A DNA stretch of 32,000 bases, from NCBI RefSeq assembly GCF_000020225.1, contig NC_010655.1, forward strand, positions 2,550,001 to 2,582,000. Direction: 5' to 3'. Shown here in pieces: positions 8,514-29,791 of this stretch. The notes beneath the pieces were generated by a model. It worked only from the letters and a program-made list of their open reading frames with translations, ran no database searches and was not told where the DNA came from. Each line of letters opens with the position of its first letter. Position 1 is the stretch's first letter. Source of the stretch: Akkermansia muciniphila ATCC BAA-835 (GTDB lineage Bacteria; Verrucomicrobiota; Verrucomicrobiia; Verrucomicrobiales; Akkermansiaceae). The position numbers were made by a program, and so were the translations under genes.

Positions 8514-10115
8514 GTGAATTCCCCCGCATCCTTCGTCAAATCCCTGCTGGCCCAATGCTGCCTGGGCGGCATTTGCGAGTGGGTGGTCTGCCCCGGCGCG
8601 CGCAACATGGCGCTGCTCCAGGTGCTGGCTGCCGCGGAGGATCTGGTGAAATGGACTCACTTTGACGAACGGTCCGCCGCCTTCTTTGCGCTGGGCCGCA
8701 TTCAGGATATAGGGCTGCCCGTGGCCGTGGTCACTACCTCCGGAACGGCGGCGGCGGAACTGCTCCCCGCCGTGGTGGAGGCCTACTACCAGCGCCGCCC
8801 CCTGCTCCTGCTCACGGCGGACCGTCCGGCGGCCTGCCGGGGTTCCGCCGCTCCCCAGGCCATCGAACAGGCGGATCTGTTCGGCATTTACGCACCCACG
8901 ATTGACCTGGAAACGCCGGAAAGCCTGCCGGAAGACATTCTGCAAGACTGGGATTACGCCTCACCCCTCCATATCAACGTGTGCCTGCCGGATCCGGACC
9001 CTGCCTGGAACCCCGGCAGCTGCGACCTTTACCCGGCGGAACCTCCGGAGGAAAACGGATTCCGGGGCTCCCTGGCAGAACTGGCCCGGGCCCTGCGCTT
9101 CAAATCGCGCGGCGGGCTGGTGGTCATGATCGGCGGCCTGGACCCCACGGAACAAGCCCCGGCCCGGTGGCTGGCCAACGAACTGAAAGCCCCCGTGGTG
9201 GCGGACGCCACCTCCGGACTCCGGGAAGAGCTGGCCCATCTGGCTCTGACGGACGCAGACGCCCTGCTGAGGGAACACCCGCCCGCCGTCCTGCTCAGAT
9301 TAGGGGACGTGCCCGTGGCCCGCTTCTGGCGCGACCTGGAGGACATTCCAGCCACGGAAGTCTTCTCCGTCACCCGCACCGGCTTCTCCGGGCTGGCCCG
9401 CCCCTCCTCCGTCGTAACCGGAGACCTGGAAGCCATTCTGCATGCGCTGGGGGATATAGATACCGTGGGCGACGTCAACGGCCTGCGCGCCATGAACAAA
9501 CGCAGGAAAGCCCTGATGGAGGAACTGCTCATCACCTGCCCGGAAAGCGAACAGGCCATGGTGCGCTCCTTCTCCTGCTTTGCCGCGGACGGAGACTGCA
9601 TTTACCTGGGCAACTCCATGCCCGTGCGGTACTGGAACAGCTTCGCCCAGACGTCCATCCCCACGGAAAACGTCCGCGCCAACCGGGGCACCAACGGCAT
9701 TGACGGGCAAATCTCCGGTTTTCTGGGGGTCTCCGCCCGGTGTTCCCGCTCCTGGGCTCTCGTGGGCGACCTGACCGCCATGTATGATTCCAATGCCCTG
9801 GCACTCCTTCCCCAACTGGACAGGGGGACCCGCGTCCTCGGCGTCATCAACAACGGCGGAGGGGGCATCTTCCGCACCCTCCCGGGAGCAGACGGCCAGC
9901 CGGAAACCATGAGGAAGCTGCTTGTACAACCCCACGCCCATTCCTTCAAAGCCATTGCGGAACAATGGGGAATGCGCTACCTGACCATCCGCACGGCGGA
10001 GGACTTCGACCAGCTTGATTCCCTGGAGGAAAACAGCCAGACGCTTGTAGAGCTCATCCCGGACAGGGAGCAGACGGAACAGATCCGCCTCCGGCTGGCC
10101 AACGCCCAGGTGTAA
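8514..10115 (+). CDS. menD: 2-succinyl-5-enolpyruvyl-6-hydroxy-3-cyclohexene-1-carboxylate (SEPHCHC) synthase
   Basis: GTG start 5 nt after the metG stop. The 533-aa ThDP enzyme has a MenD-like N-terminus (...VCPGARNMALL...FDERSAAFFALG...TSGTAAAELLPAVVEA...PLLLLTADRP) and a C-terminal ThDP-binding GDL...NNGGGGIF motif. Confidence 0.88.
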   Translation: MNSPASFVKSLLAQCCLGGICEWVVCPGARNMALLQVLAAAEDLVKWTHFDERSAAFFALGRIQDIGLPVAVVTTSGTAAAELLPAVVEAYYQRRPLLLLTADRPAACRGSAAPQAIEQADLFGIYAPTIDLETPESLPEDILQDWDYASPLHINVCLPDPDPAWNPGSCDLYPAEPPEENGFRGSLAELARALRFKSRGGLVVMIGGLDPTEQAPARWLANELKAPVVADATSGLREELAHLALTDADALLREHPPAVLLRLGDVPVARFWRDLEDIPATEVFSVTRTGFSGLARPSSVVTGDLEAILHALGDIDTVGDVNGLRAMNKRRKALMEELLITCPESEQAMVRSFSCFAADGDCIYLGNSMPVRYWNSFAQTSIPTENVRANRGTNGIDGQISGFLGVSARCSRSWALVGDLTAMYDSNALALLPQLDRGTRVLGVINNGGGGIFRTLPGADGQPETMRKLLVQPHAHSFKAIAEQWGMRYLTIRTAEDFDQLDSLEENSQTLVELIPDREQTEQIRLRLANAQV

Positions 10116-10245
10116 ACATGCCTTCACCAAAAACGAAAGGAAGCCGGCCTTTTGCCCGGCCATATCCTGCGATTCCTTCCAAATGGATTGAAAATGCCAG
10201 ATAAAAATAACATTTCCTGCATCTAACCATAGGGAAATTTCTTTC

Positions 10246-10273
10246 TTGCCAGACGAAGGGAAGAGACTACATT
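10246..10273 (+). promoter_or_regulatory. Candidate sigma70-type promoter for the riboswitch leader
   Basis: TTGCCA (10246-10251), 16-nt spacer, TACATT (10268-10273), in an AT-rich stretch just upstream of the riboswitch. This is a pattern match only. Confidence 0.3.
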
Positions 10274-10289
10274 AACGGCGATTCATGAA

Positions 10290-10480
10290 AAATGAATCTC
10301 CATTGGGACGACGGCGGGAGCCGTCAGGAAATAGATGGGGAATCCGGTTAGAATCCGGAGCAGTTCCGCTACTGTAATTCTTCCACAGGAAGATAAGCCA
10401 GAATACCAGCCTGATGGATGCCTATGCATATGGCGGGAAACCATTTGATAGACCATGTTCACCAGAATCATATCCGCTTT
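10290..10480 (+). promoter_or_regulatory. Cobalamin (B12) riboswitch; boundaries approximate
   Basis: The + strand core GGGGAATCCGGTTAGAATCCGGAGCAGTTCCGCTACTGTAA (10337-10377) matches the conserved cobalamin-riboswitch core GGGAA..GGTGAGAATCC...GC.G..CCGC.ACTGTAA. AAGCCAGAATACCAGCC (10395-10411) matches the B12 box (AGYCMGGAGACCKGCC). An upstream GACGGC-GGGA-GCCGTC hairpin is present. The element lies in a 557-nt intergenic leader upstream of the 10673 CDS. Confidence 0.75.
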
Positions 10481-10672
10481 GGATAAGGAGCGCCCCATTC
10501 ACGGCGTCCTCTGTTATTTCCGGTTCCATGTCTCAACCGGACTTTCCTGTTTCCGGTATCCCCCTGAATGAATGGAACCTTCCCATCCGGCGGTCTCGCA
10601 ACCGCCAATGGCAAGCCTTTTTTCTGGAAACCGGTGCATGGGCTGTGCGTCAACACAAAGTCCATACGAAAC

Positions 10673-11392
10673 ATGATGAGTAAAAAACAACTGCTATTAC
10701 TGCTGCCGGCCCTGTTTGCGGCCATTTCAACCCTTCCTGCAAATGCGGCCCACATCCTTACGGGAGGAGGAACCGGAGCTGTAAATGCCAGCGGTACAGG
10801 CATCTCCATGCAACTGAACCAGGGCTTTACTTCTGATACTGCCCTGCCCGGAGCCGTGAACCTCGACTCCATACAGCTCAAGCTGACGGACAACCGGTTT
10901 ACCGCGGACTTCACATCCGGCAGCCTTACCATGGTGGTATTCACCAAACCGGCGTCGGACAGCGCGGACTGGACGGTCGTCGGGCAATCCCGCACGGAAG
11001 AAAACCTCTCCGTGAATATCGGCTCCTACACCGACGTCGAATTTACCTTCAGCAACCTCCTTCTGAACACATCGCAGGAATACGTCTTCGCCTTCGTTTC
11101 TGACGCCGCCATGCTGGGCAGGCTGACAATAGGCACGAGCCTTCAGGCGGAAGAGGGAGCTGACTCCCCATTCAGCGTAGACAACGGATTTGCCTACGCC
11201 TCCATGCAGTCAACAGCCTTTTACAGCGGGGCTCCCGTCATACTCTACTACAATACGGGCAACGAAACGAGCATGTACTTCCCGAACATGATCGTTACCG
11301 TCACCGACCCCGAAAGCGTCCCCGAACCGGCTTCATGCCTGCTTGTCACGCTGTCGTGCGCGGGCCTGCTCGTCTCACGCAGAAGAAGATAA
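10673..11392 (+). CDS. PEP-CTERM-anchored secreted protein of unknown function (riboswitch-controlled)
   Basis: Starting at ATG 10673 gives a signal peptide (MMSKKQLLLLLPALFAAISTLPANA). The C-terminus VPEPASCLLVTLSCAGLLVSRRRR is a canonical PEP-CTERM sorting signal (PEP motif, TM helix, Arg cluster). The middle part, about 190 aa, has no motif I recognise. The 10568 start is in frame but lies in the leader. Confidence 0.85.
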   Translation: MMSKKQLLLLLPALFAAISTLPANAAHILTGGGTGAVNASGTGISMQLNQGFTSDTALPGAVNLDSIQLKLTDNRFTADFTSGSLTMVVFTKPASDSADWTVVGQSRTEENLSVNIGSYTDVEFTFSNLLLNTSQEYVFAFVSDAAMLGRLTIGTSLQAEEGADSPFSVDNGFAYASMQSTAFYSGAPVILYYNTGNETSMYFPNMIVTVTDPESVPEPASCLLVTLSCAGLLVSRRRR

Positions 11393-11420
11393 CCTCGAAC
11401 CGCCAAACTACTGGAATATC

Positions 11421-11485
11421 CGGTACGGCTACGGCCTTCTGCGATTTTCCCAACTGCCTTTCGCGCGGAGGGAAAAGCCGTACCG
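11421..11485 (+). other. Composite 19-bp stem-loop (possible terminator, sRNA or REP-like element)
   Basis: The outer stem is a perfect 10 bp: cggtacggct (11421-11430) pairs with agccgtaccg (11476-11485). The inner stem is 9 bp: ccttctgcg (11435-11443) pairs with cgcggaggg (11464-11472), including 2 G-U pairs. No U-tract follows. The 9-mer ccggtacgg recurs at 11598-11606. Confidence 0.4.
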
Positions 11486-12142
11486 AGTCATTGGGCATTC
11501 CGCCCATCCCCCAACGCAGGCTCAGGGCCTTCACCTGGCAGAGCTGGCTGCCCCAACCGTCTTCCGAACCTCGACCTCCCTTGCATAGGGCTGCAAACCG
11601 GTACGGAACTTCAGCCCCCGGTGTTCCCTATCATGTGGGCACAGCGTACGTTTTCATTCACTCTCGCAGCATTCAAGCGCGGTTGAAAAAACAGGACTTC
11701 TTTCTGTCCAGAACTCCAACCCGGCATGCCAGCAGGGAAGAACCGTGGCCGGACTTATCGTAAAACAGGTATCAGAATTCCACCTTCTCCACATCCTCAT
11801 TAATTTGCAGAAAAGGATGTTCTCCGCCGGATCACGGTCGCAATCCTCCAACTTCCGGGAAACGGCCTCCTCCCACCGTTCTCCCGGCATTTTTTCTCAT
11901 CGGCAGAAAGTCCGCCGGGACTGCGGAAACAGCCCAGACGAATGATGCACAAACAACCAAAGCCGCATGCAACAGGGCAGTGCCATGAAACAGCATGTCC
12001 GCCTTAATATTCATACGGCAGGAAGCACCGGGCCGCCCTCCCCTTTTTTCCGCCTCCAGAGGCATTTGACGCAGTCTCCCCCCCTTGCCATTAAATACGT
12101 TCCTGCACGGCATGAGGTTGCCGGCCTTCCGCCGGAAACCAG

Positions 12143-13453
12143 TTAAAGATAGCTGCGCACCACGCCGGAGACGCGTTCACGAGCCGCGGCAATGCGCTTG
12201 CGCAATTCCAGCGTGTAGGCTTCCATATCCCGGATGGGGGACTGGGCCACCCCGGAAATCATGGCCGCCTGGGCTACCGCCGGGCACTCCCATTCAATAA
12301 TGCGGGGATCAATGGGCTTGGGAATCACGTAGTCGATGCCGAAGCTGAGCGGGGCTCCCCCGTAAAGGTCAATCACTTCCTGGGGGACGGGCTCCTTCGC
12401 CAGATCGGCCAGGGCGCGGGCGGCGGCAATCTTCATCTGTTCATTGATGACGGAAGCGCGCACATCCAGGGCGGCACGGAAAATAAAGGGGAAACAGGAA
12501 ACATTGTTCACCTGGTTGGGCCAGTCGGAACGGCCGGACCCCATAATGCAGTCAGGCCGCGCTTTTTTAGCATCCTGATACGTAATTTCCGGGTCCGGAT
12601 TCGCACAGGCGAAAATGATGGGGGAAGGAGCCATGAGCTTCACCATGTCCTGCGTGAGCAGTCCCTTGGTGGACAGCCCCAGGAACACGTCCGCTCCGGT
12701 AAGGGCCTCCTCCAGGGAGCAGTCTTCCGACTGGGAGAACTGCGCTTTCGTGGCATGAAGATCAATGCGTCCGGTATGAATCAGCCCCTTGGAATCAAAC
12801 ATGTAGATATGTTCGCGACGCACCCCTAACGTCATGTAGAACTTGGCGCAGGAAATGCCGGCAGCGCCGGCCCCCACGACGACAACCTTCATATCCTCCA
12901 GCTTGCGGCCCGTCAACTCCGCGGCGTTCAGCAGGGCGGCGCCGGAAATCACGGCCGTGCCATGCTGGTCGTCATGAAACACGGGAATATTCATCTCCTC
13001 CCGCAGGCGTTCTTCCACCATGAAGCATTCCGGAGCCTTGATGTCCTCCAGATTGATGGCGCCGAAAGTGGGTTCCATGGTCTTGATCGTCTCAATCAGC
13101 TTTTCCGGTTCCTTCACGTTCAGCTCAATGTCAAAAACGTCAATATCCGCGAACACCTTGAACAGAACGCCCTTGCCCTCCATCACCGGCTTGGAGGCAT
13201 CCGGACCGATATTGCCCAGTCCCAGAACGGCGGTGCCGTTGGTGATTACGCCCACCAGATTGGAGCGACCAGTGTACAGGGCGCTTTGAGAAGGATCCTC
13301 TTTAATGCGGAGGCAGGGCTCGGCCACGCCCGGGGAATAGGCAAGAGTCAGATCCCGTTGTGAAAAGCAGGGCTTGCAGGGCAGCGTTTCCACCTTGCCG
13401 GGGCGGGGCTGGGAATGGTACTGCAAGGCATCTAATCTAATATCGGAACTCAT
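12143..13453 (-). CDS. NAD(P)-dependent malic enzyme (short form, no PTA domain)
   Basis: Starting at ATG 13453 gives MSSDIRLDALQYHSQPRPGKVETLPCKPC...DLTLAYSPGVA...VITNGTAVLGLGNIGP...PVMEGKG.LFK..A.IDVFDIE...FGAINLEDIKAPECF...HDDQHGTAVISGAALLNA...VVVGAGAAG, the textbook MaeB/YtsJ-type layout. The longer listed ORF (to 14056) runs across the divergent promoter region and into the neighbouring gene, so it is rejected. Confidence 0.93.
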   Translation of the reverse strand: MSSDIRLDALQYHSQPRPGKVETLPCKPCFSQRDLTLAYSPGVAEPCLRIKEDPSQSALYTGRSNLVGVITNGTAVLGLGNIGPDASKPVMEGKGVLFKVFADIDVFDIELNVKEPEKLIETIKTMEPTFGAINLEDIKAPECFMVEERLREEMNIPVFHDDQHGTAVISGAALLNAAELTGRKLEDMKVVVVGAGAAGISCAKFYMTLGVRREHIYMFDSKGLIHTGRIDLHATKAQFSQSEDCSLEEALTGADVFLGLSTKGLLTQDMVKLMAPSPIIFACANPDPEITYQDAKKARPDCIMGSGRSDWPNQVNNVSCFPFIFRAALDVRASVINEQMKIAAARALADLAKEPVPQEVIDLYGGAPLSFGIDYVIPKPIDPRIIEWECPAVAQAAMISGVAQSPIRDMEAYTLELRKRIAAARERVSGVVRSYL

Positions 13454-13621
13454 GATTGTAATGAAAAAACAGAAAATCGAGCCTTGCTTGCACCACAGAA
13501 CAGACATGCATTCAAGTAAATAATCAATTAATTGCGTCACACGCTCCGGAAAAGGAAAACCTCTTTTTACATTGATAGAGTCCCCCGGGTATGCTAGTAG
13601 GTAGCCGATAATTAACCGCCT

Positions 13622-16600
13622 GTGACCATGGAACATACTCCACCCCTGCCTTCCGGATTTAATATCAACGGCTATCTTATTCAATCCCTGAAACAGACGG
13701 CCCCTCTCTGCCATGTTTATTACGTTTCGGATGCCAACCATGTTCCATACCTGCTCCGCGAATTCTGCCCCCAGGGGCTCGCTGTGCGCGACCCGGAAAG
13801 CGGAAAACTGCGTTATCCGGAAAACACGGATATTGAACGGGAAGTTCTTCCGCTGAAAAATGACTTCGAAGCCCAGTTCCGAACCGGTTCCCTGTGGGAA
13901 ATTTCCGCCCTGGGCACCCTGTACCTGGCTTATGCCATTCCCGGCAGCCATGCCGCAGCGGAGCCTCCTCCCGGTCCGGTCATCCCCCCGGCGGAGCCCC
14001 TCCGGAGCGATCAACGGCCGCTGTCCACTCCCGGAACCGGGGCGGCGCCCGTCCATGCGGGTTCCCTTCCCCAGCCTCGGAAAAAGAAAAACTCCGTTGG
14101 CCTATGGCTCCTTACCCTGCTCCTGCTGGGAGGCGCATGCGGAACTTATTATTACACCCAGACAACTTCGGAAAAATCCGTCTCTCTGCAGGAACCGGCC
14201 GTCCCCCAATCCGGCAGGGAAAAGAAGAAAGCTGCCAAACCGGAAAAGAAAGCCGTACTGCCCGCCGTAAAGGCGGAAACCCCTCCGGAACAGAAAAACG
14301 CCGTGCCCGCCTCCCCGTCCGGAGACGTGGAACAGCCGAAAAAAACACCGCCGCCTATTTCCTCCGGAGAAAGGAACGGAAACGCCCCGGACATTTTAAA
14401 GAATGAATCCGCCGCCTCCCCTGCTCAGACTGCCGGAGAATCCGATGTCCCGGCCCATGACGCTGCAGACGGAAAACAGCCGGAACCGGAAAATTCCGCC
14501 AACCGGAAGGAAGCACAGGCGGCACAATCTGCCGTCACCCCTGTTCTTGAAACGCGTCTACGGGGAAAAGCCTCCAGGCAAACCACCAATATGGGAGACG
14601 TCAACTCCTATGTGAGGAAATTCGCCAAGCCCATGACGCTGAACCAGTGGAAAAAGCAATACGCCAACCTGTACACAAGCTGGTTCGGCAATTCCGAGGA
14701 AGTAGCCAAAGGCTGGATCACCACCTTCGGCCCCCTGGGATTCCGAGCCCGCGGTTTGGACGCCTCCTGGCCGGACACGAACTTCCGCGGCTTCTTCCCC
14801 AAGACCATGCTGGATCCCAACGGGGAACCCGTGGCGAACCTCTACACGGTCACCCAGGTGATTGAGGGTTCCCCCGCTGAAAAATACATCAAGGAAGGAG
14901 ATCTGATCCTGGGCATTGACGGACACCCCTTCAAAACGTCTCAAAGCCTGGACGTGCTTTACGGCCCTTATCAGCACCAAAACAGGCGCGGCCTGGACAT
15001 GCACGCGGGCCTACTGGTGGACAAGGCGGAAGGAGCCGGAAAAATAACCCTGAATATTATTCCCGCGGAAAGCGTGGAAAAAATCCAGGGCATCCAGCCT
15101 CTCTGGAAAGAAGTTTTACGGGAGGAACGGGCCCAAAAGCCCGTCTCCCTTTCCATTCCGGTAAAGGGCGGCCAGCAGGTGCGCCTGCGCGTGGATGACG
15201 GCGGCAACGGCATTGGCAGCGACGGTTTTGAATGGTCTGGCCTGAGGCTGGAAGGTCCCGGCGGAACCGTTCCGCTGACCCGGGCCCTGCAATACACCGT
15301 AGGTTACGGGGAGGCCAAGTATGACCCCAAAAGCAGCGTATGGCAGGCCCACGCCGTCTCTTCCCTGGTTTTTGACATCCCCAGGGGAGACTGGGAACTC
15401 AAAGGGACAGGAACCCCCAGGTGGTCTGCCTCCGTTGGCGTGACCGTACAGGTGGGAGGCTCCTCCACTCTGCCGGACGCCGTGAAGAAATACGTAAAAA
15501 ATGTCACCTTTAAAATACCCCAGCTGGGCTCCTATGCCCTCGGCTTCCCCAAAAACTGCGCCAAGAGCAAGGCGGTTGTCCACATGATGAGTGAATGGCT
15601 GGCGGCCCAGCAGCGCGAGGACGGTTCCTGGGAACGTCCGGGCGGCTACTGCGGCAACCATTATGATACGGGCTGGGCCGGGCTGGCCCTGATGGCCACG
15701 GGCAACCCTAAATATGACCCCGTCATTAAAAAGGCGGCGCACTACATCGCCTTCTCCGGCTCCCAGTGCTGGTGGGCCGTCCCCCAGGCATCCGCAGGTA
15801 TTTTTCTGTGTGAATACTGGCTGCGCTACCGGGACAACTCCGTTCTCCCAGCCATCCGCAACGGCGTGCAGCGCATGAAAAACGAAGTCCTTTACGGGGA
15901 CTTCGTCACCGGCCACGGCATTCACCCGGGCTACCGGGGAACAGGCGTCAGCATTGGCGGCTCCCACATGTGCCTGTTCCTGGCGCTGGCCAGCAAAACC
16001 CCGGCGCGCACGGAAGACGATGTGCTGGACAAAATGATGGATCATGCCCAGTCCATCTGCCCCACCGGCATGGGGCCCTACGGCCGCATGACGGAAACCT
16101 TCACCTTTGAACCCAACCGCGAATGCGGGGGAACCTACTCCGGCCGCCATGGCCCGTACTACATTGCTTCCCTCATCTGCGGCGGCCCGGAACTGTACAC
16201 CAAAAACAGCCGCATCATGTACGGTGAAGGCCCCATCGGCGGCTGTGACCAGGGCCACTCCTCCGAGACGCTCTCCATCATGTGGGCCCTTCCCGCCTAC
16301 TGGCGAACCAATCCGGAAGTATATTACAAAAACATGGAGGCTTTTCGATGGAAACTGACGCTGTTGCGCCCCTTTGACGGCGGCATGATGCAGAACCCCA
16401 ACCGCCTGGAACTGATGACGGCGGATCCCGTCATCGGCACCTACATCCGCACCAGCATCTGGATCACGGCCCTCTGCGCGGAACGCCGGAACCTGGCAAT
16501 CACGGGCAAGCCGGAATTTCAGGCAAAGACATTCCGGAAGGTGCCCCCTATCATCGATACGGAATCCCGCTTCCTGAATACCTACGTGCGCAACTGGTCC

Positions 16601-18004
16601 ATGGTAAATGCGGCGCTTGGGGCCAAGGCGCCCGCCTCCCTGAAATCCGCCATCCGGGAACTGAAAAACATTCCTGTGGAACAAGGCTGCCGCTTTAAGC
16701 TTATCAATGTCGTCAACAACCGCGCCCTCCCCATCGCCAAGGCTATCATGGAAATTCCCGGGGTGGACCAGCTCACCAAGGCCACCTGCGCGGAAATGGT
16801 TCTGGGCATGGATGTGCGCATTTTCTTTGAACCCAAGCGCAAGGACGATAACCCCCAACCCGGGGAATATTCTTTAACCGTGGATGTCCAGCAGCCGCTG
16901 GGCGGCCGCGCCCTGGGGCTTCACCGCGACAAGGAACTGGAAGGAAAAGCCAATTCCGCCTACAAATATGACTTTGCCGGCACGGTGCAATTCAGCGACA
17001 CGACCACCTTCTCCCCCATGGAAACCATTTCCTGGACGCCCAATTCCAAATTCGGCGGACAGTGGAACGTTTACTCCTATAAAAAGGAACTCAGCGGTCC
17101 CACCCAGCCGGGCGTGCAGAAAATGAACGCCAAAATCAAATGGCGCGTCAATGACCTGGATGTGGAATACGACCGCCCCATCGCCGTGGGCGGCTTTGAA
17201 GTGGGATGCCCGGAAAAAGCCCTTTCAGTCACCAACTGCAACCATCTGTGGGTGCCGGGCATCCTGATCCGGGACCACGGCAACTGGGGATGCTCCTTCC
17301 ATCTGCCGGACGGAACCTACATTTCCGCGGCCTCCCAGGGCAACCAGATAGAGGTGTACGACAAAACGGACAAAAAGAAGGAAACAACCTGGGTTTCCCC
17401 GAATGACTCCTGCCTGACTCAAGGTTCCCGTTGCCTGTTCCGCGTTTCTACGGACTGGCACGGCCTGGAATGCCGCGTGCGTGAACTGAAACTGCTGGGC
17501 AGTTCCACGGAGGAAGTCGCGGACTATAAGCTGAAAGCCTCTACCGGAGGCCGTGTGGATACGGCCAAACTACTGGACAGGGACGCTACCACCGTTGAAG
17601 AACTGGACGCGTCCCCCTCGGAAGACGAGCCCCTGGTGCTGGAACTCACCCTGAAATCCCCTGCCGCCCTGCGCGCCGTGGACATCAAGATTGAAAAGGG
17701 CAACAACCGTTTAGTCATTGAAGCCAACAAAGGCGGCAAGTGGATTCCTATTCACTGGGGCTCCCTGGGGGCCTCTACTGCCGGCGTCAGCGATGCTCAG
17801 AAAGCCATGTACGCGAATGAACCGGAAGTACTGCGCATGCTCCAGCTTCCGGGCAATGGATTTATCAAATGCATGCGGACGTTTGACCCTGTCACCACCA
17901 ACAGGCTGCGCATCAAGCTCTTCCAGAAGGGCGGAAAAGTCCGCCTTGCGGAACTGCACGTGTACAAGGCAAACGCCGTCAGAAATATGGCTCTCCAGTC
18001 TTAA
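13622..18004 (+). CDS. Giant single-pass membrane protein with an N-terminal cytoplasmic module shared with the 21886 gene
   Basis: 1460-aa ORF with a GTG start at 13622; the alternative ATG is at 13628. The order is: conserved N-module (aa 1-105), Pro-rich linker, KKK plus TM helix (VGLWLLTLLLLGGACGTYYY, about nt 14096-14152), a long K/P/E/A low-complexity spacer, then the ectodomains. These are a PDZ-like segment (VTQVIEGSPAEKYIKEGDLILGIDGHPF), an NPCBM-like segment (RLRVDDGGNGIGSDGFEWSGLRLEG), a squalene-cyclase/prenyltransferase-like QW repeat (WLAAQQREDGSWE, then GWAGLAL), and a C-terminal discoidin-like segment (LLDRDATT...LRAVDIKIE...GGKWIPI...TNRLRIKL...LAELHVY). Confidence 0.9.
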   Translation: MTMEHTPPLPSGFNINGYLIQSLKQTAPLCHVYYVSDANHVPYLLREFCPQGLAVRDPESGKLRYPENTDIEREVLPLKNDFEAQFRTGSLWEISALGTLYLAYAIPGSHAAAEPPPGPVIPPAEPLRSDQRPLSTPGTGAAPVHAGSLPQPRKKKNSVGLWLLTLLLLGGACGTYYYTQTTSEKSVSLQEPAVPQSGREKKKAAKPEKKAVLPAVKAETPPEQKNAVPASPSGDVEQPKKTPPPISSGERNGNAPDILKNESAASPAQTAGESDVPAHDAADGKQPEPENSANRKEAQAAQSAVTPVLETRLRGKASRQTTNMGDVNSYVRKFAKPMTLNQWKKQYANLYTSWFGNSEEVAKGWITTFGPLGFRARGLDASWPDTNFRGFFPKTMLDPNGEPVANLYTVTQVIEGSPAEKYIKEGDLILGIDGHPFKTSQSLDVLYGPYQHQNRRGLDMHAGLLVDKAEGAGKITLNIIPAESVEKIQGIQPLWKEVLREERAQKPVSLSIPVKGGQQVRLRVDDGGNGIGSDGFEWSGLRLEGPGGTVPLTRALQYTVGYGEAKYDPKSSVWQAHAVSSLVFDIPRGDWELKGTGTPRWSASVGVTVQVGGSSTLPDAVKKYVKNVTFKIPQLGSYALGFPKNCAKSKAVVHMMSEWLAAQQREDGSWERPGGYCGNHYDTGWAGLALMATGNPKYDPVIKKAAHYIAFSGSQCWWAVPQASAGIFLCEYWLRYRDNSVLPAIRNGVQRMKNEVLYGDFVTGHGIHPGYRGTGVSIGGSHMCLFLALASKTPARTEDDVLDKMMDHAQSICPTGMGPYGRMTETFTFEPNRECGGTYSGRHGPYYIASLICGGPELYTKNSRIMYGEGPIGGCDQGHSSETLSIMWALPAYWRTNPEVYYKNMEAFRWKLTLLRPFDGGMMQNPNRLELMTADPVIGTYIRTSIWITALCAERRNLAITGKPEFQAKTFRKVPPIIDTESRFLNTYVRNWSMVNAALGAKAPASLKSAIRELKNIPVEQGCRFKLINVVNNRALPIAKAIMEIPGVDQLTKATCAEMVLGMDVRIFFEPKRKDDNPQPGEYSLTVDVQQPLGGRALGLHRDKELEGKANSAYKYDFAGTVQFSDTTTFSPMETISWTPNSKFGGQWNVYSYKKELSGPTQPGVQKMNAKIKWRVNDLDVEYDRPIAVGGFEVGCPEKALSVTNCNHLWVPGILIRDHGNWGCSFHLPDGTYISAASQGNQIEVYDKTDKKKETTWVSPNDSCLTQGSRCLFRVSTDWHGLECRVRELKLLGSSTEEVADYKLKASTGGRVDTAKLLDRDATTVEELDASPSEDEPLVLELTLKSPAALRAVDIKIEKGNNRLVIEANKGGKWIPIHWGSLGASTAGVSDAQKAMYANEPEVLRMLQLPGNGFIKCMRTFDPVTTNRLRIKLFQKGGKVRLAELHVYKANAVRNMALQS

Positions 18005-27028: not shown

Positions 27029-28309
27029 TCAAGCCTGTTCAGGACGGATGCAGTCCGCGCCGAAATACGGCACAAGCGCCTCCGGAATCCGGATGGAGCC
27101 GTCCGGCTGCTGGTAAGTTTCCAGAAGGGCCACATACAGCCGCGGCAGAGCCGTGCCGGAACCGTTCAGGGTGTGGCAGAACTGGTTCTTGCCGTCGGCA
27201 TCCTTGTAACGCAGGCGCATGCGGCGCGCCTGGTAGTCCGTAAAGCAGGAACAGGAAGAAACTTCCAGATACTGCCCCTGTCCCGGAGCCCATACTTCAA
27301 TATCATACGTCTTGGCGGAGGAAAAACCGAGGTCTCCCGTGCAGAGCTCAATCACCCGGTAATGCAGCCCCAGTTTTTGAAGGATGGATTCCGCATGGCT
27401 GCGGAGCACTTCCAGCTCCCGGAAGGAGTCTTCCGGCTTTAAAATCTGCACCAGTTCCACCTTGTCAAACTGGTGGACGCGGATCATACCGCGGTTGATG
27501 CGGCCGGCGCTTCCGGCTTCCCGGCGGAAGCAGGGCGTGTACGCGGCCATCTTGATGGGCAGGTCGCTTTCCTGTAAAATGGTATCCCGGTACAGGTTGG
27601 TGACCGGCACTTCCGCCGTAGGAATCAGGAACATCTGCTGGTCTTCCGTGCCGTACATGTCTTCCTCAAATTTAGGAAGCTGGCCGGTGCCTTCCATGCA
27701 CTCCCTTTTCACCACAAAAGGAACGCCCACTTCCTGATAACCGTTTTCCACGGTCTGCGTATTCAGCAGGAAGTTGATCAGGGCACGTTCCAGACGGGCG
27801 CCCGCCCCACGGTACACCACAAAACCGGAGCCCGTAATCCGTGCTCCGTCTTCAAAGGAAATCATGCCCAGATTCGCGGCCAGTTCCACATGGTCCTTCG
27901 GGTTTTCAATAGCGGGCTTTTCTCCCCAAAGCTTGATTTCCGGGTTGGCCGTTTCATCCGCACCCACGGGGCATTCCAGGTGCGGCAGGTTGGGAATGTT
28001 CATCAGCAGGGAGGTGAGCTGGGCTGCATTTTCCTCCGCGACACGGTCCAGTTCCCGGATGCGGTCCCCGATTTCGCGCACGCGCGCTTCAATGGAGGAA
28101 GTGTCTTCCCCTTTCTTCTTGAGCATGCCGATCTGCTTGGAGGTGGCATTGCGCTCGGACTGCAGGGCCTGCTTTTCCGTCTCGGCATTGCGGCGCGCTT
28201 CATCGCAGGCCAGAACGTCATCAACAAGCTTCCACGCGTCGCCGCTGCGGGGCTTTAGCCGCGCTTTCACTTCTTCCGGATTTTCTCGTATTACACGGAT
28301 GTCGAGCAT
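27029..28309 (-). CDS. serS: Serine--tRNA ligase
   Basis: Starting at ATG 28309 gives MLDIRVIRENPEEVKARL... (coiled-coil tRNA-binding arm). Class II motifs are present (...YTPCFRREAGS.G...RG.IRVHQF.KVE..., ...SSCS.C.DYQARR..., ...HTLNGSG.A..R). The listed 887-aa ORF is an upstream extension antisense to the dehydrogenase gene. Confidence 0.95.
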   Translation of the reverse strand: MLDIRVIRENPEEVKARLKPRSGDAWKLVDDVLACDEARRNAETEKQALQSERNATSKQIGMLKKKGEDTSSIEARVREIGDRIRELDRVAEENAAQLTSLLMNIPNLPHLECPVGADETANPEIKLWGEKPAIENPKDHVELAANLGMISFEDGARITGSGFVVYRGAGARLERALINFLLNTQTVENGYQEVGVPFVVKRECMEGTGQLPKFEEDMYGTEDQQMFLIPTAEVPVTNLYRDTILQESDLPIKMAAYTPCFRREAGSAGRINRGMIRVHQFDKVELVQILKPEDSFRELEVLRSHAESILQKLGLHYRVIELCTGDLGFSSAKTYDIEVWAPGQGQYLEVSSCSCFTDYQARRMRLRYKDADGKNQFCHTLNGSGTALPRLYVALLETYQQPDGSIRIPEALVPYFGADCIRPEQA

Positions 28310-28669
28310 AACGCGCACAGCTTGCACTCCATCCCCCCGCCACGCAAGCCAAATGAACGGCCTTCCATGGAAAAACGTTACCCTTTCACGGAAAAACGCT
28401 GCGCGCAGAGGCATGCTTTCCCGAATGCCGCCCCTTTCCGGAAACTGCCGTTTTTCCCGTGTCAGACAATGATTTTTTTCCTTCTCAGGAAAACCGTACA
28501 GCAGGAGGACCGGACTCTCCATGTTTCCGGGAATCATGGACATCCGGCGCCAGGGTGCATTACAGGAAGGACCGGGAAGGAACTTCCCCCCGGTTCCAAC
28601 AGGCGGAGTTCCTTTCATCACTATTTGTTCTTGAAGAATCCGGGCGGCAAAGGATAGTGTAAGGGCATC

Positions 28670-29791
28670 ATGCAACAAACCGCACGCGCCGCTGTCCTGA
28701 CAGCACCAAAGACATTTGAAATCCGTGAATATCCCATTCCCGCCATCGGAGACGATGAAATGCTGATCAAGGTGGAAGCCTGCGGCGTTTGCGGAACGGA
28801 CGGCCACGAATACAACCGGGACCCCTTCGGCCTCTGCCCCGTGGTCCTGGGCCATGAAGGCACCGGGGAAATCGTCGCCATGGGCAGGAATATCACTAAA
28901 GACACCGCCGGAAATCCCGTAGCGCTGGGGGACAAGATCGTCACCTGCATCATTCCCTGCGGCACCTGTGACGCCTGCCTGAATACTCCGGCCCGCACCA
29001 ACCTGTGCGAAAATGTGGGCGTGTATGGCCTGATGCCTGACGACGACGTGCATCTGAACGGCTACTTCGGGGAGTACCTCGTCATCCGCAAGGGCTCCAC
29101 ATTTTTCAATGTTTCCGGCATGACGCTGGACCAGCGCATTCTGGTGGAACCCGCCGCAGTGGTGGTCCATTCCCTGGAACGCGCCAAGTCCACCGGGCTC
29201 CTCAAGTTCAATTCTGTGGTTCTCGTGCAGGGCTGCGGCCCCATCGGCCTTCTTCAAATCGCCACGCTGCGCACGCTGGGCATTGAAACCATCATCGCTG
29301 TGGACGGCAATGACTCCCGCCTGGAACTGGCCAGGGAAATGGGAGCCTCCCGCACGTATAACTTCACCCGGTACGCGGATCTGAACGAACTGCTGGATGC
29401 CGTGAAAAAGGACAACGGCGGCCGCCTGGCGGACTTCGTCTTTCAGTGCACGGGCGTAGGCAAGGCCGGGGCCAACGCCTGGAAGTTCGTGAAGCGCGGC
29501 GGCGGCCTGTGCGAAGTGGGCTTTTTCATGGATGGAGGGGAAAGCGTTATCAACCACCATTACGACCTCTGCAACAAGGAGGTAACCGCCGTAGGCTCCT
29601 GGGTGTACTCCCCGCAGGACTACCCGACCACATTCGACTTTCTGAAGCGAGCCTACGGCATCGGCCTGCCGCTGACCAAGCTGATCTCCCACCGCTTCAA
29701 GCTGGATGAAATCGCGGAAGCCCTGGAAACCAACGTCCAGATGAAAGGCATCAAGATTGCCGTCATTTGTAATTGCAGTAAAAATATATAA
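28670..29791 (+). CDS. Zn-dependent medium-chain dehydrogenase/reductase (alcohol/polyol dehydrogenase family)
   Basis: Catalytic-zinc signatures VEACGVCGTDGHEY and GHEGTGEIV. A structural-zinc Cys cluster (CIIPCGTCDACL...C) and a Rossmann motif VLVQGCGPIGL are present. The last roughly 9 codons (ICNCSKNI*) are encoded by AT-rich DNA continuous with the downstream islet. Confidence 0.9.
   Translation: MQQTARAAVLTAPKTFEIREYPIPAIGDDEMLIKVEACGVCGTDGHEYNRDPFGLCPVVLGHEGTGEIVAMGRNITKDTAGNPVALGDKIVTCIIPCGTCDACLNTPARTNLCENVGVYGLMPDDDVHLNGYFGEYLVIRKGSTFFNVSGMTLDQRILVEPAAVVVHSLERAKSTGLLKFNSVVLVQGCGPIGLLQIATLRTLGIETIIAVDGNDSRLELAREMGASRTYNFTRYADLNELLDAVKKDNGGRLADFVFQCTGVGKAGANAWKFVKRGGGLCEVGFFMDGGESVINHHYDLCNKEVTAVGSWVYSPQDYPTTFDFLKRAYGIGLPLTKLISHRFKLDEIAEALETNVQMKGIKIAVICNCSKNI
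29779..29790 (+). repeat. Left copy of 12-nt direct repeat TAAAAATATATA flanking the AT-rich islet
   Basis: Read directly: taaaaatatata at 29779-29790, overlapping the last codons of the dehydrogenase CDS. An identical copy is at 30543-30554. The AT-rich context raises the chance-match probability. Confidence 0.5.

Follow-up and report, generated by a model that had tools for sequence, protein, structure and literature searches.

A cobalamin riboswitch in Akkermansia muciniphila ATCC BAA-835 lies upstream of, and very probably works to control, a single gene, Amuc_2105, which encodes a small PEP-CTERM protein predicted to be exported. We identified this pair in a stretch of 32,000 nucleotides (nt) of the genome (contig NC_010655.1, positions 2,550,001 to 2,582,000 of the forward strand), referred to here as the window and numbered from its first letter. 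Cobalamin riboswitches almost always govern B12 transport, synthesis, salvage, or B12-independent isozymes. In contrast to these usual cases, the target here is a lone PEP-CTERM protein and not a gene of transport, synthesis, salvage, or an isozyme. The element is therefore unusual: it belongs to a known riboswitch class but has an atypical, lineage-specific target that is unreported in the searchable literature, in which we found neither a discussion of Amuc_2105 nor a paper linking PEP-CTERM genes to cobalamin riboswitches. In A. muciniphila, a widely studied gut bacterium associated with health, one small orphan protein is singled out by a riboswitch-gene pair that selection maintains across Akkermansia species.

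The riboswitch was recognized as a match to Rfam family RF00174 on the forward (+) strand at 10288-10428, where it scored 46.3 bits (gathering score, 31.5; E value 9.5e-09 for the whole window). It was the sole above-threshold Rfam match in a scan of all 32 kb, takes in model positions 1-189 of 189, and gave the same result when 10100-10800 was rescanned. An initial annotation of this DNA, made from the letters alone, had already proposed a cobalamin riboswitch here, and it had placed the core (10337-10377) and the B12 box (10395-10411) exactly where we find them.

10288..10428, + strand: cobalamin riboswitch aptamer, compact form (RF00174 match, conservation)
10395..10411, + strand: B12 box AAGCCAGAAUACCAGCC (aligned to the B12-box columns of RF00174; invariant in orthologues)

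The core at 10337-10377 is of the GGGGAA/CCGG type, and GGGGAA and GCUACUGUAA align to core columns of RF00174 with high posterior probability. The purine-rich aptamer core AGAUGGGGAA occupies 10333-10342, and the aptamer also carries a GGGAA junction and a GCUACUG motif. The P6 peripheral extension consists of 10 nt in place of 62 consensus positions, so we assign the aptamer to the compact type. Lack of the large P6 extension is a mark of class-II cobalamin riboswitches, and an aptamer this compact would be expected to favor corrinoids whose upper ligand is small. The full model match, the GGGAA junction, the GCUACUG motif, and the B12 box are all shared with the compact, class-II-like forms of RF00174, such as the env8 hydroxocobalamin riboswitch, as are the missing P6 extension and a position within the 5′ leader of a gene on the same strand. 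Unlike in the usual cobalamin riboswitches, the leader from aptamer to start codon is unusually long (247 nt).

An RF00174 match (43.8-53.2 bits) was present in 26 of 26 orthologous Akkermansia loci; retention of the riboswitch in orthologues was a check that the initial annotation had proposed. These loci are the orthologues (72-100% protein identity) with enough upstream sequence, drawn from Akkermansia metagenome-assembled genomes and metagenome contigs; the metagenomes that are labelled are human-gut, and the others are unlabelled. The orthologous loci share the order metG, menD, riboswitch, PEP-CTERM gene. Between species with a coding-DNA identity of 80-92%, the aptamer keeps an identity of 95-100%. 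Compared with L001, the most distant orthologue, identity is 95% in the aptamer, 83.5% at 10429-10560, 47% over the next 65 nt, and 78% in the last 50 nt before the start, with 79.5% in the Amuc_2105 coding sequence (CDS) and 80.4% in menD. At synonymous sites, Amuc_2105 has diverged from its L001 counterpart by 0.52 and menD by 0.71, and an aptamer that is 95% identical despite this divergence is strongly constrained. In P2, one G-C pair has changed in a compensatory manner to A-U, and all other aptamer pairs are invariant, in a comparison limited to near-identical Akkermansia sequences. Scans of Akkermansia genomes and metagenomes yielded close relatives only and so added no diversity for the covariation analysis. 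The gene itself is under purifying selection, with a ratio of non-synonymous to synonymous substitution (dN/dS) of 0.22-0.34, compared with 0.12-0.16 for menD.

One natural variant alters the protein. A 14-nt deletion allele, CGTTACCGTCACCG (window 11293-11306; loci L040-L042), occurs in at least 21 contigs from several sequencing runs. The deletion shifts the reading frame just before the PEP-CTERM signal and leads to a read-through product of 358 amino acids (aa) (P0007), and the leader in this sublineage is 98.4% identical to the window. The deletion strains may release the protein, or they may be in the course of losing the gene.

We considered whether the aptamer could be a relic that has lost ligand binding or regulation, leaving Amuc_2105 expressed or silent regardless of B12. 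A relic would fit the modest score for the family, the three departures in the B12 box, the lack of a flagged canonical terminator, the fact that Amuc_2105 has never been detected by proteomics, and the frameshift in one sublineage. It fits poorly with an aptamer that has diverged by 5% where the synonymous sites of the flanking genes have diverged by 0.5-0.7, with the presence of the aptamer in all 26 loci, with the compensatory change in P2, and with the intact leader (98.4%) of the frameshifted sublineage. We regard a relic as very improbable.

The initial annotation described the downstream gene as encoding a 239-aa protein with a signal peptide, a PEP-CTERM anchor, and no motif that could be placed, and each part of this description agrees with our analysis.

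10676..11392 (238 aa) or 10673..11392 (239 aa), + strand: Amuc_2105 CDS, PEP-CTERM sorting domain-containing protein (exact match)
10673..10747, + strand: signal peptide MMSKKQLLLLLPALFAAISTLPANA (read from the translation)
11315..11389, + strand: PEP-CTERM sorting signal VPEP-ASCLLVTLSCAGLLV-SRRRR (TIGR02595)

The product of 10673-11392 matches ACD05914.1 / UniProt B2UPN6 exactly, with the deposited version carrying an N-terminal extension. The original record calls the protein hypothetical, and newer NCBI records use "PEP-CTERM sorting domain-containing protein" for the 239-aa form. Because orthologue L007 has ATC at the position of the first ATG, the true start is probably the second ATG, at 10676. 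We rejected the extended public models of 274, 287, and 295 aa (P0001-P0003), whose extension is not conserved and holds indels. The original 274-aa model of Amuc_2105 and other public annotations start 35-56 codons too early (window 10568-10672).

By inspection, the signal peptide has a KK n-region, a 15-residue hydrophobic core, and an ANA/A-type cleavage site (ANA-A), lacks a lipobox cysteine, and is conserved in the orthologues. The C-terminal tail passes the cut-off of TIGR02595 (PEP_CTERM; 18.2 bits, cut-off 16) and lies under that of Pfam PF07589 (PEP-CTERM; 15.5 bits, cut-off 20.7). Searches of Pfam and NCBIfam at E ≤ 1 yielded no Amuc_2105 domain besides this tail. These sequence signals point to a secreted, PEP-CTERM/exosortase-sorted protein that is probably localized at the cell surface and whose mature form would span residues 26-212. 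Ottman et al. (2016) counted Amuc_2105 among 23 PEP-CTERM proteins of A. muciniphila and reported an EpsH-like exosortase gene (PMC4960237); no exosortase gene lies within the 32-kb window. Like the other A. muciniphila PEP-CTERM proteins listed, Amuc_2105 combines a signal peptide and a PEP-CTERM signal with no annotated domain. Amuc_2105 is not listed in the supplements of an A. caccae co-culture transcriptome.

Two AlphaFold2 runs modeled the protein as a beta-sandwich, with predicted local distance difference test (pLDDT) values of 55.3 and 58.3 and predicted template modeling (pTM) scores of 0.60 and 0.63. Using these models (pLDDT 55-58), Foldseek found no match in the PDB at E ≤ 0.001 and no B12 binder in the top 50. 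The top matches, generic beta-sandwiches that are insignificant and have template modeling (TM) scores below 0.35, came from adhesin repeats, C2 domains, viral jelly rolls, and carbohydrate-binding-type sandwiches. A sequence profile search of the PDB gave only chance-level matches to TolC and nothing related to B12.

A word-indexed search of 5.8 billion proteins returned nothing beyond the Akkermansia orthologues. An exhaustive search of 1.84 billion representatives with a hidden Markov model gave 12 matches, six of which are distant full-length relatives (E values 5e-14 to 4e-4, 21-28% identity). All six share an architecture of signal peptide, beta-rich domain (~180 aa), and PEP-CTERM tail. 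Adding the distant homologues made the alignment too divergent to be scanned for patterns. The other PEP-CTERM proteins of Akkermansia that we examined resemble Amuc_2105 in the C-terminal tail only. The homologue P0016 adjoins an Abi_alpha gene and a tRNA (L008 1-2900), and P0019 adjoins a phage-type integrase (L009 550-2600); these mobile-element-type neighbors suggest that this small PEP-CTERM family moves horizontally.

Between aptamer and gene, and upstream of the aptamer, the leader region holds several elements that may bear on how the riboswitch acts.

10246..10273, + strand: promoter-like site TTGCCA-16 nt-TACATT, sigma-70-like (consensus scan and conservation)
10280..10298, + strand: perfect hairpin of 7 base pairs (bp), GAUUCAU-GAAAA-AUGAAUC, at the predicted 5′ end of the transcript (read from the sequence)
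10429..10560, + strand: conserved post-aptamer leader with several small hairpins (identity to orthologues)
10430..10444, + strand: hairpin AUGG-CGGGAAA-CCAU directly 3′ of P1 (sequence; invariant in six loci)
10574..10623, + strand: terminator-like element, an imperfect stem-loop (10574-10617) followed by U6 (10618-10623) (local fold)
10634..10667, + strand: conserved hairpin just upstream of the start codon (RNAalifold, conservation)

The initial annotation spoke of a 557-nt leader. That figure is correct for the intergenic DNA between the menD stop (10115) and the ATG at 10673, whereas the transcribed leader is probably only ~395 nt, counted from the promoter-like site and a predicted transcription start near 10280. 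Both hexamers of this site are invariant in six orthologous Akkermansia loci, and the region is 90-93% identical to its orthologues, compared with 54-87% for the intergenic DNA upstream. Chance alone would give one such site in the region scanned; our promoter assignment therefore rests on position and conservation. The hairpin at 10280-10298 overlaps the first bases of the Rfam match and is predicted in every fold. Its stem is invariant in all orthologues and its loop differs in length by 1 nt. This inverted repeat could serve to stabilize the 5′ end or act as an operator for a protein.

The hairpin that follows P1, at 10430-10444, may on sequence grounds be a P13/L13-like partner of loop L5 (UUCCG, 10364-10368), with a complementarity of GGAA/UUCC alone (4 bp) that shows no sequence variation. 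The start codon is far from this hairpin, so the usual sequestration of the ribosome-binding site (RBS) by L5-L13 pairing cannot apply as such. In a check of RBS sequestration across six orthologues, the probability that the start codon is unpaired showed no consistent difference between free and aptamer-locked leaders. The conserved segment at 10429-10560 is 83.5-94.7% identical to its orthologues, compared with 47-83% over the next 65 nt; its substitutions and indels form a non-coding pattern, and the z-score of its fold is just -1.3. In the hairpin at 10634-10667, RNAalifold found pair changes limited to G-C to G-U, in a region that is 78-94% identical.

The terminator-like element is a candidate expression platform and a plausible intrinsic terminator. 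The ggcggt/accgcc hairpin and T6 of the initial annotation are present, within a longer, 44-nt imperfect stem-loop that is followed by U6. The local fold has a free energy of -18.2 kcal/mol, with GGCGGU/ACCGCC as the inner stem and an A-rich tract 5′ of the stem-loop. A distance of 52 nt separates the end of the element from the start codon. All orthologues have a stem-loop at the homologous position despite an identity of 47%, with four pairs changed on both sides. A simple terminator scan flagged nothing at U6, because the internal loops of the stem-loop violate the rules of the scan. In ligand-free minimum free energy folds of transcripts ending at the U-tract, AGAUGGGGAA is predicted to pair with the 5′ arm of the stem-loop in the window, L007, and L005, and with other pyrimidine-rich leader segments in L004 and L001. 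These folds fit a terminator/antiterminator OFF switch, as far as long-range thermodynamic prediction goes. We judge transcription termination at 10618-10623 to be about as likely as not.

Two open reading frames (ORFs) in the leader were tried as upstream ORFs (uORFs) and rejected, because substitutions in the orthologues are non-synonymous or frameshifting. The 89-codon ORF at 10414-10683 (+) has the look of a coupling uORF: it opens within the 3′ strand of P1, and its stop lies 5 nt past the start codon at 10676 (8 nt past the first ATG at 10673). Its frame is not kept in orthologues, whose leaders measure 247, 245, and 243 nt. The 18-codon ORF at 10430-10486 was likewise rejected, as leader lengths vary by 2 or 4 nt among orthologues.

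We propose the following scheme, which as a whole (an OFF-switch leader, an exported Amuc_2105, and a role in corrinoid acquisition) we hold tentatively, at slightly short of an even chance. Amuc_2105 would be transcribed from its own promoter as a one-gene mRNA with a riboswitch leader of ~395 nt. With corrinoid bound, the core AGAUGGGGAA (10333-10342) would be held in the aptamer, and the stem-loop and U6 (10574-10623) would form and stop transcription ~50 nt before the start codon. When corrinoids are scarce, the core would be free to pair with pyrimidine-rich parts of the leader, among them the 5′ arm of this stem-loop, and read-through would allow Amuc_2105 to be made and exported to the cell envelope. 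There, it would most probably help this B12 auxotroph to acquire corrinoids, by capturing or concentrating them for a transporter encoded elsewhere. The OFF polarity, the terminator/antiterminator mechanism, the surface localization, and the corrinoid-related function are all steps that we infer.

The surface B12 binders BtuG and BtuH of Bacteroides are members of cobalamin-riboswitch regulons. The regulatory logic and the auxotrophy of the host make corrinoid capture the most economical hypothesis for Amuc_2105. A. muciniphila MucT does not synthesize B12 de novo and needs external corrinoids for MetH and methylmalonyl-CoA mutase, and it remodels corrinoids with CbiR (PMC5945754, PMC10881866, PMC7733943). 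Amuc_2105 shares with BtuG and BtuH (PMC10881866) its export, its predicted surface location, its cobalamin riboswitch, and its B12-auxotrophic gut host. It differs from them in lacking sequence similarity or a fold match (with weak models), in having a PEP-CTERM/exosortase anchor where BtuG and BtuH are lipoproteins, and in not being encoded beside a BtuB transporter. In the papers that we found, there was no Akkermansia counterpart of BtuG and no account of corrinoid capture at its cell surface. A direct role of Amuc_2105 in corrinoid capture is possible but doubtful, and it seems unlikely that the protein founds an Akkermansia-specific family of exosortase-sorted corrinoid binders with a fold unrelated to BtuG, BtuH, and BtuF that is expressed when corrinoids are scarce.

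Several results weigh against the proposal. Concerning the switch, the B12 box AAGCCAGAAUACCAGCC departs at three positions from the consensus AGCCAGGAGACCuGCC; L004 and L001 have a degenerate U-tract, compared with U5-U6 in four lineages; and thermodynamic modeling across orthologues gave no switch that is consistent between species. Concerning the function, the 32-kb window is devoid of btuB, btuFCD, and cob genes (the lack of an adjacent transporter had been recognized in the initial annotation), and we found no sequence or structural similarity of Amuc_2105 to any corrinoid-binding protein, with AlphaFold2 models that are weak. P0016 and P0019, the two distant homologues with readable upstream DNA (21-23% identity), have no cobalamin riboswitch, so the link to B12 is an acquisition of the Akkermansia lineage rather than a trait of the family; the contigs of P0015 and P0068 are too short upstream to judge. 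The one other Akkermansia PEP-CTERM gene that was scanned upstream, P0069 (L012/L013), has no riboswitch either. The 14-nt deletion removes the PEP-CTERM tail, and the anchored form is thus dispensable in some strains. Finally, Amuc_2105 was detected in no proteome fraction from growth on mucin or glucose (PMC4960237, Table S4). Because the growth media may contain B12, this non-detection is compatible with repression, of which it is no positive evidence. The corrinoid binding or capture suggested by the initial annotation is therefore unsupported rather than refuted: there is no domain for it, no B12-related match by Foldseek or PDB profile, and no riboswitch at P0016 or P0019.

Many of these observations would also fit a role for B12 as an environmental cue, reflecting community density or luminal versus mucus location, that switches a surface, adhesion, or matrix protein with no part in corrinoid handling. 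The other members examined of this PEP-CTERM beta-sandwich family have no B12 riboswitch, B12 genes are absent nearby, and the fold comparison, though weak, comes closest to adhesin repeat domains, C2 domains, and carbohydrate-binding-type sandwiches. Those matches are insignificant, however, and come from low-confidence models, and they give no sign that the protein is an adhesin; moreover, a cobalamin riboswitch very rarely controls a gene outside B12 metabolism. PEP-CTERM proteins of A. muciniphila vary between growth conditions (Ottman et al., PMC4960237), and in Methylophaga nitratireducenticrescens GP59, PEP-CTERM genes are under signaling riboswitches for cyclic di-GMP (c-di-GMP) (PMC12530212). 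The GP59 riboswitches are, as here, directly upstream of a single PEP-CTERM gene, and they are the nearest precedent for riboswitch control of such genes. They differ in riboswitch class and ligand, and the GP59 genes are in an exopolysaccharide cluster, whereas Amuc_2105 is among housekeeping genes. Taken alone, a cue that acts on a protein without corrinoid handling seems unlikely, and a B12 signaling role in surface remodeling is nearly as likely as corrinoid capture. If Amuc_2105 does bind corrinoids, B12-capture proteins would gain a new structural class, a PEP-CTERM protein of A. muciniphila would for the first time have an assigned function, and a B12 auxotroph of the mucus layer would have its own B12-capture device. 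If it binds no corrinoid, the cobalamin riboswitch would here signal for remodeling of the cell surface, which would be a rare use.

We also examined the surroundings of the pair. Upstream are menD (Amuc_2104) and metG (Amuc_2103). Downstream, the gene at 12143-13453 on the reverse (-) strand encodes a malic enzyme (PF00390, PF03949), as the initial annotation had it. The 750-nt tract between the two genes (11393-12142) had been called empty, but it holds frameshifted and internally deleted remnants of a convergent gene.

11531..11996, - strand: decayed remnant of a convergent gene, originally ~367 aa, with no known domain (tblastn)

Using the intact orthologues of L004 and L005 as queries, tblastn recovered residues 266-368 of the C-terminal part, spread over three different frames, along with the first 27 residues; a deletion has taken ~615 bp out of the middle of the gene. 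In other Akkermansia species, the convergent gene is intact and encodes 329-369 aa (L001 8922-10031, L004 8862-9965, L005 8862-9851). No other same-strand gene follows the riboswitch, as had been claimed, and with the pseudogene remnant and the malic enzyme gene convergent downstream, Amuc_2105 is the sole gene that the riboswitch can control in cis.

The intact convergent gene raises the question of whether the riboswitch mainly controls an RNA output, either antisense read-through into this gene or a trans-acting leader RNA, to which the link with Amuc_2105 would be secondary. RNAs controlled by B12 riboswitches include AspocR and Rli55 of Listeria and EutX of Enterococcus. In the other Akkermansia species, the 329-369-aa gene ends ~140 nt past the PEP-CTERM gene, so that read-through would be antisense to it, and the leader is long (~395 nt) with a conserved post-aptamer part. 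However, the convergent gene has decayed in A. muciniphila, yet the riboswitch and Amuc_2105 are conserved there, and Amuc_2105 is under purifying selection and follows the leader in 26 of 26 loci. A primary RNA output appears very unlikely.

Other neighbors in the window, besides metG, menD, and the malic enzyme gene, encode a DUF6288 protein and proteins of families GH16 and GH3. A search of plasmids with the DNA of the locus gave no match. In L001, the most divergent Akkermansia species, the region at 10387-13656 carries an extra 259-aa PEP-CTERM protein and a 794-aa SASA (sialate O-acetylesterase-like) protein before the malic enzyme gene, both of which are absent from the window. The 887-aa ORF at 27029-29692 (-) has seryl-tRNA synthetase domains at residues 462-860 only, and its N-terminal 460 residues may be an artefact of mechanical ORF calling or a separate gene. 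At 13622-18004 (+), a 1460-aa protein has DUF6288 and PDZ domains and a weak NPCBM match, and its ORF overlaps the over-extended malic enzyme ORF on the opposite strand. By gene order, this protein is probably Amuc_2107, which is among the proteins measured in outer-membrane fractions (Ottman et al., PMC4960237).

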